Shown here: positions 10,416-58,241 of the stretch, in pieces
Layout of the letters: each line of letters begins with the position of its first letter
How positions within the stretch are numbered: the first letter of the stretch is position 1
Sequence record: MH243438.1
DNA length: 64,000 nucleotides
Direction: 5' to 3' (one strand)
Source of the DNA: Escherichia phage vB_EcoM_NBG1
The notes under the pieces: generated by a model
Database searches by the model: none
Told to the model about the DNA's origin: nothing
What the model saw: the letters and a program-made list of their open reading frames with translations, nothing else
Program-made: the position numbers and the translations under genes

Positions 10416-10478
10416 GATATTTTCCTCATTTTAAGACGATAGGAAGTCATGTTATTATCTTCCTATCGTTGTACATTA

Positions 10479-25663: not shown

Positions 25664-25827
25664 TTTACCATACTCGTTTCAATAAGATTCACTATGCCGT
25701 TTACCATGTTATAAGTAAACATCGGATAATTGTATTGTACTACAACATAAGAGATAAGCAAAAGTTTCATTTTGTTCTCCGTTCGTTTTGGTAGGACTAC
25801 TATAACATAATCCTACCAAGATGTAAA

Positions 25828-26061: not shown

Positions 26062-26221
26062 ACATTTGCAATTCGGAGTGGGCGATGGTCATCTTTTTCA
26101 TAGCTCTGTTAATGTCGATGTCTCCATCTTCGCAACCATGAGCATTTTCCCAATCAGATACCGCATTAGCGTACTCTTCAATCAAAAACATTAACTTTGA
26201 AATCTTTTCTTTACGCGTCAT
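26042..26221 (-). CDS. hypothetical protein (59 aa)
   Basis: Start reassigned to MTRKEK downstream of GAGGAG; longer track ORF would include its own promoter and terminator. Confidence 0.45.
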   Translation of the reverse strand: MTRKEKISKLMFLIEEYANAVSDWENAHGCEDGDIDINRAMKKMTIAHSELQMYVNEIM

Positions 26222-26277
26222 AATGTTCTCCTCTAGTAAGTAAGGACTACTATAACACAACCTGAGGAGAAGTAAAC
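26222..26277 (-). promoter_or_regulatory. Early promoter/Shine-Dalgarno cassette (near-copy of regB cassette)
   Basis: Minus strand GTTTAC-TTCTCCTC...TATAGT...CTAGAGGAGAACATT-ATG. Confidence 0.45.
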
Positions 26278-26285
26278 TGATAGAT

Positions 26286-26316
26286 GCCAAAAAGCCCCAA
26301 CCATAAGGAAGGGGCT
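26286..26316 (-). terminator. Rho-independent terminator downstream of rI
   Basis: Minus-strand hairpin GCCCC/GGGGC with inner CC/GG, then TTTTTGG; ~22-bp arm identical to element at 41863-41884. Confidence 0.55.
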
Positions 26317-26322
26317 AGTAAA

Positions 26323-29414: not shown

Positions 29415-29873
29415 CTAGATTTTAATCACTGCTTTAGAAGCTTTTCCTGGTAGTCGTTTACTGTTAATAATAGCCATTCTGCATTGAAGAGTCTTCATTT
29501 TGAATGCCGGATTTTCGCGACAAACTGTAAGTCCTAACCAAAGATTTCCGTCAGTTATTTCTAAACGGCCTGGACGATACTCGACACCTTCGACAAAATC
29601 TTCATCAACATCTGGACGTGCCGGCATTGATAAAAATTCTGCAACTTCTTTAACGTGATTTTTTACTTTATGAAATAATTCAAAAACGTAATTCTCATCT
29701 ATTTCTCTCTGGATGGCACGATCTAAGAGATGTTGAGAATACTTGATATGAAAGCCTGGTAGTCCAAGAGACTTTGCAGCATCTTTTATACCGGCATTTA
29801 TTTTGCGGAACTCCGTTTCAAAGATTCGACGGAGTTTATTACGGCGGATAAAAACTTCCGAATTGATAGTCAT
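29415..29873 (-). CDS. regB: RegB endoribonuclease
   Basis: MTINSEVFIRRNKLRR...LKYSQHLLDRAIQREIDE...RPGRLEITDGNLWLG...QCRMAIINS.RLPGKASKAVIK matches T4 RegB. Confidence 0.85.
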   Translation of the reverse strand: MTINSEVFIRRNKLRRIFETEFRKINAGIKDAAKSLGLPGFHIKYSQHLLDRAIQREIDENYVFELFHKVKNHVKEVAEFLSMPARPDVDEDFVEGVEYRPGRLEITDGNLWLGLTVCRENPAFKMKTLQCRMAIINSKRLPGKASKAVIKI

Positions 29874-29880
29874 TTTGATT

Positions 29881-29930
29881 TCTCCTCTAGTTGACAAGTC
29901 TATAGTAACACAACTAGAGGAGAAGTAAAC
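29881..29930 (-). promoter_or_regulatory. regB early promoter with anti-SD/SD stem
   Basis: Minus strand GTTTAC-TTCTCCTCTAG-TTGTGT-TACTAT-...-CTAGAGGAGA-AATCAAA-ATG; 10-bp perfect inverted repeat. Confidence 0.55.
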
Positions 29931-30229
29931 TACTCTTTGAAAGGAATTAACTTTTTAACTGCTTTAGATACTTCGTCACGAACCTGATGGAAGTTCTTGA
30001 GCTGTTCAAGGCGTTGTTCGTAATACGCAATCTCATCTTCTTCAAGACAATCGTCAGCGTCTTCTTTCAGATATGCCTTGTACTCATTAAAGAGGGCCCA
30101 TAGGCGGTTCTCAAAGTCATCAAGGCTTTGAATTTTCTTGTGCTTCGGAACAAGGCCAAAAGGATTGCTTTCAGTTATGCGTCTAGATGCTTCATAATGA
30201 GTTCCAAAGCCTGATAGGATTTGAGCCAT
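29930..30229 (-). CDS. hypothetical protein
   Basis: 99-aa ORF. Confidence 0.5.
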
Positions 30230-33095: not shown

Positions 33096-33509
33096 TTAGT
33101 AAATTGATTTACCATAGTATTTGTACCAAGTCGGACGTTGAGCAATTTTTTCATCTAAGCGTGCTTGACTTATCGCAATGGACTCTTCGGACGGGATGTA
33201 ATTATTACGAAATTCTACAGGAATGTCGGAAATATCCTGGACTGTCGTGTCCTTGATTTTGAAACCACGTTTCAAACATTCGGCTATTAGCTCGATTTGA
33301 CGTAAACGTAAAAATTCGAGTTTGTCGTAAAAGAATGTTACGTGACCTGTGCCTAAGATAAATGTTGGAGAGATTTTAAAATCTTTTACACGTTTACCAT
33401 TTTGAACATGTTTACGGACTGCACCAAATACGCGTGGTAATTCACGATACTCAGCCATAAGATGTTGGTCGGACAGTTCAGAAACAAGTGTTAAATTGAT
33501 ACGAGTCAT
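33096..33509 (-). CDS. denV: Endonuclease V (pyrimidine-dimer DNA glycosylase)
   Basis: [35 protein letters not shown]... close match to T4 DenV. Confidence 0.9.
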
Positions 33510-33513
33510 AATT

Positions 33514-33566
33514 TCCTCCAAGTAGTTGATAGATGTATAGTATCAAAGTCCTTGGAGGAAGTAAAC
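33514..33566 (-). promoter_or_regulatory. denV early promoter with anti-SD/SD stem
   Basis: Minus strand GTTTAC-TTCCTCCAAG-...TACTAT...-CTTGGAGGAA-ATT-ATG; 10-bp perfect inverted repeat. Confidence 0.55.
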
Positions 33567-36811: not shown

Positions 36812-36873
36812 TCATTTGTTTTGATAGGTCTATAGTATCAACAACTACAGACCTTGTAAACTGTTTTGTGAAA

Positions 36874-38107: not shown

Positions 38108-38157
38108 TTGTTTTGATAGGACTACTATAACATAGCCCTATCTTGTTGTAAACTGTT

Positions 38158-41779: not shown

Positions 41780-41865
41780 AATATTTTCCTCATGTTTTTA
41801 TAGGTCTATAGTAACACATCTAGGGAAGAAGTAAACAACTTTATGAAATATTTTTATGCCCTAGA

Positions 41866-41896
41866 TGCCAAAAAGCCCCAACCTTTCGGAAGGGGC
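41866..41896 (-). terminator. Rho-independent terminator closing the tRNA transcription unit
   Basis: Hairpin GCCCC..CC-TTTC-GG..GGGGC followed by TTTTTGG; sequence copy of terminator at 26286-26316. Confidence 0.55.
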
Positions 41897-42571: not shown

Positions 42572-42648
42572 TGGCCGAGACAGAAGGATTCTAACCTTCA
42601 ACCTACGGATTAGAATTCCGTTGCTCTATACAATTGAGCTATGCCTCG
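42572..42648 (-). tRNA. tRNA-Arg (anticodon UCU)
   Basis: 77-nt cloverleaf folded by hand with 7-bp acceptor stem, GCTC/GAGC D-stem, anticodon loop AUUCUAA, T-arm GAAGG-TTAGAAT-CCTTC, encoded CCA. Confidence 0.7.
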
Positions 42649-42654
42649 AATATA

Positions 42655-42728
42655 TGACCCAGACCAGATTCGAACTGGTAACCTTTCCCTTATGAGGGGA
42701 CTGCTGCTAACCATTGAGCTACAGGGCC
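42655..42728 (-). tRNA. tRNA with CAU anticodon (Met or Ile2 type)
   Basis: 74 nt, anticodon loop CUCAUAA, T-arm ACCAG-TTCGAAT-CTGGT; one acceptor mismatch and unclear D-stem in my reading. Confidence 0.6.
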
Positions 42729-44183: not shown

Positions 44184-44232
44184 TTGTTTTGATAGGACTA
44201 CTATAACATAGTCCTATCAGCATGTAAACTAC

Positions 44233-57368: not shown

Positions 57369-58241
57369 ATGGCATTTTTTAAGCAAACTCCTAAACAATT
57401 AATCGATACCGGCGAAATTGGTAATGCCTCAACAGGTGATATCTTATTCGACGGTGGTAATAAAATAAATGACGATATCAACGCTATTTACAATGCATTT
57501 GGCGATCAACGTAAAATGGCCGTAGCAGATGGAACCGGACCTACAGGTCAAACTATTCATGCCACAGGTTATTATCAAAAAGGAAAGGCGGTCGATTATC
57601 AAACTCCTATTAAACCAGGCACTATGCATGATATTGATGCTTCTGATGGTGGTGTGATTGTTATTATTGACCGTCCTGAATTAGGTGACTCTGTAGAATT
57701 CATAAACTCTAATGGGTCTATTTCTGTTAACAATCCTTTAAGTATCCAAGTAACCGATGGTTCGATTAAAGGTGTTCTTAATAATCTTGTTATTTCAACC
57801 CCTTATACCCATGTTGTTCTTCGTTGTGTTGAACTTAATGGGCCAACTTCAGTATGGAATTATTCTACTGATAGCATGTTTGGGCAGAAAGAATCTCCTG
57901 TCGATGGGACTTGGAGTCTTACAGGAAACACAGTTTCTATTCCTCTGTTTTATCGCACAGATTATAACATGGCTAAATTGCTTGTTACATGCCAATCCGC
58001 TGACGGTAGAAAAATAAAAACATGCGAAATAAATATTCTAATAGATACAATTAACTCAGAAGTTCTTTCTACCGAATTTGCAGTAATGCGAGTTGGTAAT
58101 GTAGATGAAACAGACGAGATTGCTAATATTAGCTTTAGTATTATTAACAACTTTGCTACTATGACGATTACATCCGATATTATTGGATTACGTTCAGCAG
58201 TTAAAATTATCTCAACTCAGAAAATTGGGGTCGCTCAATAA
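57369..58241 (+). CDS. 9: Baseplate wedge/long tail fibre socket gp9
   Basis: 290 aa; position and size. Confidence 0.8.
   Translation: MAFFKQTPKQLIDTGEIGNASTGDILFDGGNKINDDINAIYNAFGDQRKMAVADGTGPTGQTIHATGYYQKGKAVDYQTPIKPGTMHDIDASDGGVIVIIDRPELGDSVEFINSNGSISVNNPLSIQVTDGSIKGVLNNLVISTPYTHVVLRCVELNGPTSVWNYSTDSMFGQKESPVDGTWSLTGNTVSIPLFYRTDYNMAKLLVTCQSADGRKIKTCEINILIDTINSEVLSTEFAVMRVGNVDETDEIANISFSIINNFATMTITSDIIGLRSAVKIISTQKIGVAQ

Follow-up and report, generated by a model that had tools for sequence, protein, structure and literature searches.

A helix between the early-promoter spacer and the Shine-Dalgarno sequence of regB in a Mosigvirus genome, and its covariation among T4-type phages

In infections by T4-type phages the nuclease RegB brings the early phase to a close, and its own synthesis is kept within tight limits. 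Published limits are the shut-off of its promoter, in T4 a typical active early promoter silenced after 2-3 min, and self-cleavage, RegB cutting the Shine-Dalgarno sequence (SD) of its own gene (PMC3014915). Does the regB leader add a control of its own through the way it folds? The question is raised by a stretch of phage DNA of 64 kb (hereafter the window, meaning the whole of the DNA analysed), for which an earlier note described a regB promoter with an arm between its -35 and -10 hexamers that is complementary to the regB ribosome-binding site. The source DNA belongs to a Mosigvirus, an RB69-like T4-type phage, with 99.8% identity to Shigella phage JK36 (MK962754), and is not that of T4 itself. 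The regB product shares 78% protein identity with T4 RegB, in the conserved gene order vs.3-regB-vs.1-vs. In public records (JK36, MK962754), the homologues of vs.1, vs.3, vs.7 and vs.8 near regB are tagged "endoribonuclease" or "RegB domain-containing", labels that seem to have spread by annotation and not to reflect true paralogy.

The regB intergenic region is a compact cassette in which stop codon, -35 hexamer, anti-SD arm, -10 hexamer, start site, SD arm and ATG follow one another (Table 1). The minus strand from 29930 to 29871 reads GTTTAC-TTCTCCTCTAGTTGTGT-TACTAT-AGACTTGT-CAACTAGAGGAGAA-ATCAAA-ATG, as the earlier note had transcribed it without error, and the order of elements from 29932 to 29871 is TAG, GTTTAC, TTCTCCTCTAGTTG, TGT, TACTAT, AGACTTGT, CAACTAGAGGAGAA, ATCAAA, ATG. 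The nested promoter is of the sigma-70-type early class (GTTTAC-N17-TGT-TACTAT), with a -35/-10 spacing of 17 nt and a TGn extended -10, and fits the PST/T4 early-promoter consensus TTTACW-N17-TAYWAT; the pattern GTTTAC-N17-TAYWRT has four matches against 0.13 expected. The late-promoter motif TATAAATA does not occur within the cassette. A perfect 14-bp helix between TTCTCCTCTAGTTG (29924-29911) and CAACTAGAGGAGAA (29893-29880) links the promoter spacer to the regB SD. The complementarity of 10 nt claimed earlier is real, but its length was understated. The 17-nt hairpin loop holds TGT and TACTAT and also the predicted start site. As an intrinsic terminator the hairpin was rejected: its loop is large, AAUCAAAAUG and no U-tract follows the stem, and the terminator scan gave no match.

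Table 1. Positions of the regB, near-copy and denV cassette features in the window, and stem arms (5'/3') of the regB lineages
Feature	Positions	Strand	Remarks
Stop codon TAG of upstream vs.3-like ORF (29930-30229)	29930..29932	minus	G is the first base of the -35 hexamer
-35 hexamer GTTTAC	29925..29930	minus	T4-type early promoter consensus
5' arm TTCTCCTCTAGTTG (anti-SD arm)	29911..29924	minus	In promoter spacer; transcribed on read-through RNA only
TGn (TGT) and -10 hexamer TACTAT	29902..29910	minus	Located in hairpin loop
Predicted transcription start, about G29895	29894..29896	minus	7 nt past -10; predicted from sigma-70 geometry
3' arm CAACTAGAGGAGAA	29880..29893	minus	Includes regB SD GAGGAGA 29887-29881 and GGAG 29885-29882 (RegB target motif)
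regB coding sequence	29415..29873	minus	152 aa plus stop; ATG 29873-29871
Near-copy cassette before 59-aa ORF	26219..26277	minus	GTTTAC 26277-26272, -10 TATAGT 26254-26249, ATG 26221-26219
Arms of the 26277 near-copy		minus	5' arm TTCTCCTC 26271-26264; 3' arm GAGGAGAA 26233-26226
denV early-promoter cassette, same design	33507..33566	minus	GTTTAC 33566-33561, -10 TACTAT 33542-33537, ATG 33509-33507
Arms of the denV cassette		minus	5' arm TTCCTCCAAG 33560-33551; 3' arm CTTGGAGGAA 33522-33513; 10 bp perfect
regB lineage stem arms			TTTCTCCTCTTTATG/CATAAAGAGGAGAAA
regB lineage stem arms, window lineage			TTCTCCTCTAGTTG/CAACTAGAGGAGAA
regB lineage stem arms, T4 lineage			TTTTCCTCTTGACTG/CAGTTAAGAGGAGAA
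regB lineage stem arms			ATCTCCTTTTAGT/ACTAAAAGGAGAT
regB lineage stem arms			TCTCCTGTAAGT/ACTTACAGGAGA
regB lineage stem arms			ATCTCCTGTAG/CTACAGGAGAT
regB lineage stem arms			ATCCTCATTTG/CAAATGAGGAT
regB lineage stem arms			ATCCTCTCTG/CAGAGAGGAT
regB lineage stem arms			CTCCTCTTG/CAAGAGGAG
regB lineage stem arms			CCTCCTTTT/GAAAGGAGG
regB lineage stem arms			TTCTCCT/AGGAGAA

The 5' arm is confined to the stretch between the -35 and -10 hexamers, and any RNA started at the regB promoter therefore lacks it, in agreement with the earlier proposal of short transcripts without the arm; the start itself, predicted from promoter geometry near G29895, falls 1-2 nt ahead of the 3' arm. Opening the SD window is predicted to cost 15.7 kcal/mol in a 185-nt read-through RNA versus 1.7 kcal/mol in the promoter-initiated RNA, which bears out the expectation that read-through RNA would bury the SD, and the GGAG at 29885-29882 is likewise predicted to be paired in the former and open in the latter. 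Read-through RNA is expected since the terminator scan of the minus strand gave nothing convincing between regB and the promoters upstream of it near 32.8-33.6 kb, and since the stop of the upstream ORF overlaps the -35 hexamer. A strict MotA-box regex, which weaker boxes could escape, returned no middle promoter on the minus strand from 29.9 to 37 kb. Neither 5' ends nor isoforms of regB are reported in the T4 transcriptome and proteome papers PMC6024815 and PMC9697503; from the features above we infer where transcription starts, that read-through RNA exists and in what amount, and how translation is affected.

The best explanation as a whole, to which we give a probability of about 0.6, is that the cassette yields two RNA isoforms differing in translatability. 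The embedded sigma-70-type early promoter would produce an mRNA beginning immediately ahead of the SD arm and without the anti-SD arm, and RegB would be made in the first minutes of infection because the ribosome-binding site is open on this RNA. RNA coming from promoters further upstream would hold both arms, and the 14-bp helix over the SD would block 30S binding, so that read-through transcripts (delayed-early or middle) would give no regB translation. This helix would also make the GGAG inaccessible to RegB/S1. In sum, the nuclease would be synthesised only as long as its own early promoter is briefly active, a design that denV and a subset of other T4-type early-promoter cassettes would share.

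How exceptional is the helix in itself? The 76-nt regB leader RNA folds at -23.2 kcal/mol (z = -2.98), with 2 of 200 shuffles equally stable, and the spacer-leader helix score of 14 (z = 7.1) was reached by none of 200 spacer shuffles. No perfect close inverted repeat (loop 3-40) in the 64-kb window is longer; the runner-up has 11 bp, and three of the six such repeats of at least 10 bp lie within early promoters. In thirty Markov randomisations of the window the longest repeat averaged 10.4 bp and repeats of at least 12 bp numbered 0.10 per window; one of the thirty reached 14 bp, so that length taken by itself is unusual only to a moderate degree. What decides the matter is comparative evidence, namely the placement of the spacer against the SD and the covariation. 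An 11-bp perfect close inverted repeat with a 12-nt loop (ACGATAGGAAG/CTTCCTATCGT, 10436-10469) had no promoter association in the scan. Rfam searched at gathering threshold over the whole window returned just two tRNAs and no known RNA family at the hairpin; these two adjacent tRNA genes (42575-42728, minus) lie where T4 has eight tRNAs.

For the comparison, 97 regB leaders (53 unique) were gathered from IMG/VR, metagenomes and GenBank phages. An SD-covering helix was found in 11 regB lineages with unrelated distal halves, the 5' arm beginning directly after the -35 hexamer; the T4 leader, for instance, keeps the architecture with another distal stem (GTTTAC-TTTTCCTCTTGACTG-...TATAAT...-CAGTTAAGAGGAGAA-TAACATG). 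All stem-bearing lineages have a -10 hexamer within the loop and an upstream stop that adjoins the -35 hexamer, 5-11 nt before the 5' arm, and none of the sampled leaders has the stem without a -10 hexamer in its loop. An alignment-free swap test gave a mean helix score of 11.3 for native spacer/SD combinations versus 6.6 across lineages (permutation P<5e-5, 0 of 20,000 permutations reaching the native sum). A plain MAFFT alignment of 31 leaders put the SD arms out of structural register and was left unused for pair counts, which were made on an alignment whose sole anchors were GGA of the SD core and the complementary TCC of the spacer, with six stemless lineage variants included. There, 68.9% of cells pair versus 55.4% in shuffles (0/500), and the covariation score is 0.322 versus 0.126 in shuffles (0/500) and 0.07-0.13 in slid registers. 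Change on both sides was seen in 11 of the 14 stem pairs, pair 8 alone occurring as CG, GC, UA, UG and AU. Judged from these leader sequences, the regB spacer-SD pairing is under selection.

The stem is not universal. In Jiaodavirus and Karamvirus it is weak, with a separate GGGC..GCCC hairpin over the -10. These leaders (L015, L016, L028 and L048 for the former; L027, L066 and L068 for the latter) carry G+C-rich GGGCCAT..ATGGCCC or AGGGCT..AGCCCT pairings over the -10, nested inside the weakened anti-SD/SD pairing and resembling the GGGG..CCCC stem-loops of RB49. The stem is absent in spite of a promoter in Gaprivervirus, Tegunavirus, Marfavirus and Aeromonas phages and is dispensable, since several promoter-bearing regB lineages lack it; Krischvirus and PspYZU05 have no regB intergenic promoter and no stem either. 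Furthermore, the Dhakavirus regB cassette is essentially the T4 denV cassette, so that part of the regB covariation probably reflects whole-cassette replacement, not stepwise compensation. The replacing cassettes likewise carry spacer/SD pairing. The regB leader of WG01 (L019) and the T4 denV leader (65355-65413) are near-identical cassettes, both arms included (ATCTCCTGTAG...CTACAGGAGA), and the presence of near-identical cassettes before different genes in different genera suggests, from sequence likeness, that whole cassettes are exchanged between intergenic sites.

Repeats of the regB cassette within one genome are also found. The near-copy that had been noticed upstream of a 59-aa ORF exists, although its contiguous stem is just 8 bp; that small ORF is of unassigned function. 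Near-copies of the regB cassette lie at 26277 and 41836 of the window and at 3-6 places per Mosigvirus genome (BLAST), with further BLAST matches in the alc/rnlA intergenic region of Dhakavirus genomes (IME08/WG01). One and the same terminator-like hairpin and tail (…GGGGCTTTTTGGCATCTA…) precedes both the 26277 and the 41836 cassettes (26283-26320 and 41855-41880, minus), and these two repeats are composite terminator-promoter repeats of the promoter-early stem-loop (PeSL) type. The regB cassette has no such upstream terminator hairpin.

The spacer anti-SD design is not special to regB, since denV and other early promoters also have it. The T4 denV arms (TCTCCTGTAG/CTACAGGAGA) follow the same design as those of the window denV with other sequences, and denV leaders from many genomes hold at least four unrelated SD-covering stems across genera. 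In the swap test native denV pairs scored 10.5 versus 7.2 across lineages (permutation P = 0.0037). In some IMG/VR denV leaders (L123 at about 245-300; L112, L121 and L122) the anti-SD arm stands directly after the -10 and not in the spacer, as in TAAGAT-GTCCTCCTA...TAGGAGGAC-AT, where the predicted start falls inside or after the 5' arm; this shifted layout would be a version of the same principle, nearer to the late-promoter layout of T4 gene e.

A scan of the whole T4 genome and the window for GTTTAC-N16-18-TAnnnT followed by a gene returned 54 early promoters. The spacer-leader helix is stronger than at least 98% of spacer shuffles in about 22 of the 54, and the spacer arm covers the SD in roughly 10 (about one fifth): in T4 at regB, denV and the promoters at 166807, 136336, 130310, 123093 and 53943, and in the window at regB, denV (33566) and the 26277 copy. 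The anti-SD words CTCC/CCTC are enriched in early-promoter spacers, both in T4 (7/42 vs 3.9% background, p = 0.001) and in the window (4/18, p = 0.004). In roughly 12 of the 54 the hairpin straddles the -10 and leaves the SD free, and because this class is about equally common, hairpins nested in early promoters may have a more general, SD-independent role. Such hairpins, with the 5' arm in the -35/-10 spacer and the 3' arm immediately past the -10 so that the start site is straddled, were observed on the minus strand of the window at 44190-44219, 25788-25819, ~38120-38153 and ~36830-36861, and in T4 at 57990, 20612, 73939, 65799 and 129918; examples of their arms are TGATAGGACT/AGTCCTATCA and, in T4, AGTTGACAAGATT/AATCTTGTCAACT. 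Hairpin class is mostly kept between orthologous promoters of T4 and the window: regB and denV are SD-covering in both with differing sequences, and trna.4 and the mobD.2-region gene are -10-straddling in both, with nrdC.8 as an exception.

These observations bear on four other explanations. The one that survives best, which we nevertheless consider unlikely, sees in the hairpin a generic stem-loop of a mobile early-promoter cassette that attenuates or terminates upstream transcription, stabilises the 3' end of upstream RNA or serves as a recombination site, and that covers the SD incidentally, the leader being short. PeSLs are promoter-early stem-loop cassettes of T4-type phages (PMC2839356, PMC4122927), dispersed repeats in which a strong early promoter is combined with a stem-loop, an SD and a start codon, and the regB cassette, whose promoter fits their TTTACW-N17-TAYWAT consensus, agrees with most of their description. 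It resembles the RB49 and phi1 subclasses, many of whose stem-loops are found in the -35/-10 interval or across the -10, and one PeSL stem-loop lowered downstream lacZ expression like a strong terminator (PMC2839356). The repetition of the cassette in this genome, its matches to other intergenic regions in other genera and the -10-straddling hairpins that leave the SD untouched favour such a generic role as well. Yet no lineage has a U-tract after the 3' arm, where the sequence is always A-rich and the terminator scan negative. The roles given for PeSL stem-loops are those of terminator, attenuator and recombination site, the sequence is typically GGGG...CCCC, and the PST/T4 description places them upstream of the promoter; spacer-SD pairing and isoform-specific translation are not described for them. 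In addition, regB is a conserved syntenic gene, unlike the ORFans of hyperplastic regions next to which PeSLs are described, although the near-copy at 26277 does precede a small ORF of unassigned function. Above all, the 3' arm of regB and denV covers the SD across lineages despite changing distal sequence, with the class kept between orthologues, and this persistence of SD cover in both genes through sequence turnover argues for selection on pairing with the SD specifically.

Somewhat less probable again is that the helix mainly protects long polycistronic RNAs from RegB/S1 by covering the GGAG of the regB SD, which would spare the downstream vs.1, vs and tk from cleavage-driven destabilisation and make translational silencing the side effect. 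The 11 nt that RegB/S1 requires, GGAGRAYARAA, have to be single-stranded, and T4 RNAs whose GGAG is part of a stable structure resist cleavage (PMC1702504); protection by structure is reported also in PMC3014915, as is the cutting of the regB SD by RegB in T4. Given this need for single-stranded RNA, the regB helix, which is predicted to bury the GGAG, should also hide it from RegB on the long RNA. The denV stem, however, is equally conserved though the T4 denV SD is RegB-resistant in vivo, owing to its 3' sequence context, and because this resistance resides in the sequence, shielding can hardly be a purpose common to the stems, whereas translational occlusion can be. Moreover, the regB SD context of the window, GGAGAAATCAA (29875-29885, minus), has A at position 7, T at position 8 and C at position 9, departs from the 11-nt RegB consensus and may be a poor RegB site anyway. 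The corresponding context is GGAGAATAACA in T4 and GGAGAAATAAA in close relatives (L003-L005). A C at position 9 was never seen in efficiently cleaved T4 RegB sites (PMC1702504), so that self-cleavage by RegB may be weaker in this phage. The known autoregulation (PMC3014915; PMC1702504) concerns the same GGAG-containing SD and likewise limits RegB synthesis to early times, but it acts in trans through a protein on single-stranded RNA, whereas the helix is proposed to act in cis, in an isoform-dependent manner, and would block RegB. Shielding is probably a real side effect for regB, compatible with the two-isoform explanation and not exclusive of it.

A very unlikely explanation is translational coupling, in which ribosomes ending the upstream vs.3-like ORF would open the helix and couple regB translation to that ORF. 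The spacing speaks for it, the upstream stop standing 5-11 nt before the 5' arm in all stem-bearing lineages, as is typical of coupled genes. With a stop codon in the A site, the mRNA entry channel of the ribosome reaches roughly 5-7 nt beyond the stop. A terminating ribosome would by this reckoning cover at most the first 1-3 A-U or G-U pairs of the 14-bp helix, which makes coupling to the upstream ORF unlikely, and the remaining pairs, at least 11, are predicted to be still very stable; as a counterpoint, the helix could be melted at its base by ribosomes that end translation at the upstream stop. A functionless product of chance or of hitch-hiking with a duplicated promoter cassette, for which the 1/30 Markov randomisations with a 14-bp repeat and the duplication of the cassette in the genome might plead, is scarcely credible and is excluded by the covariation, 11 lineages having different, mutually incompatible stems at the same place, with permutation and shuffle controls that never reach native values and the same pattern arising independently at denV.

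The two-isoform explanation has well-documented relatives. Among them are T4 e, soc, 49 and I-TevI, whose SD is hidden in long transcripts and whose translatable RNA comes from a late promoter lying in the 5' strand (PMC3014915). The regB cassette shares with them the phage family, the compact intergenic layout and the principle that a helix covers the SD or AUG of transcripts made from upstream promoters while transcripts from the nested promoter lack the 5' strand, the effect on translation being predicted for regB. Unlike regB, however, these genes have nested promoters that are late (gp55, TATAAATA) and switch the gene on late, whereas the regB nested promoter is of the early sigma-70 type and holds the anti-SD arm inside its own -35/-10 spacer. 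The proposed temporal logic is thus reversed, with translation limited to the immediate-early burst and shut down on read-through RNA made later. In B. subtilis, internal sigma-B promoters free ribosome-binding sites from occluding structures (McCormick et al., 10.1101/2021.03.06.434181); there too promoter choice sets isoform-specific translation, the long sigma-A isoforms being repressed by secondary structure and the internal promoter removing the 5' partner of the structure. That system, however, belongs to a cellular stress regulon and relies on an alternative sigma factor and on extended long-range structures, while regB is a phage gene with a local 14-bp helix and the same host sigma-70 holoenzyme for both isoforms.

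The promoter-in-hairpin type of mechanism is already known, and it is the early-promoter version that differs. Neither regB, denV nor early promoters figure among the promoter-in-hairpin cases of the review PMC3014915, and we found no description of spacer-SD hairpin control for regB, denV or early promoters in the accessible literature, which does not take in several older key papers. The regB arrangement itself is confirmed. Its sequence anatomy, its conservation with covariation and its predicted energetics are established, and the interpretation, drawn from sequence and folding models, is supported by anatomy, energetics and strong comparative evidence. All computationally checkable parts of the earlier note hold, and it is from them that we infer function.

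A conserved, covarying cis-element that silences regB on every read-through RNA would add to the published controls over RegB a third one, not listed before, and would explain why a gene embedded in a long transcription unit is expressed in the first minutes only. The sigma-70 spacer, usually treated as sequence-neutral, would encode an RNA-level function in these phages, the promoter-in-hairpin paradigm of T4 would be extended from late to early promoters with the opposite temporal logic, and PeSL-type stem-loops would gain a concrete, testable function. More tentatively, and at somewhat less than even odds, this may be a family-wide design of the Tevenvirinae, in which a defined subset of early-promoter cassettes carries, within a -35/-10 spacer that is otherwise free of constraint, a sequence that silences the downstream cistron on every read-through RNA. 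Such a design would cover regB and denV and, in T4, the promoters upstream of alc, alt.-3, 30.8, nrdC.8 and ndd.4, and these genes would be translated only from their own immediate-early promoters, with the RegB target site of regB becoming isoform-specific. Long early and middle polycistronic RNAs would be split into translationally insulated units and no trans-acting factor would be needed to set the time window of each protein; this insulation would travel with the promoter, the cassettes being mobile in a PeSL-like way.
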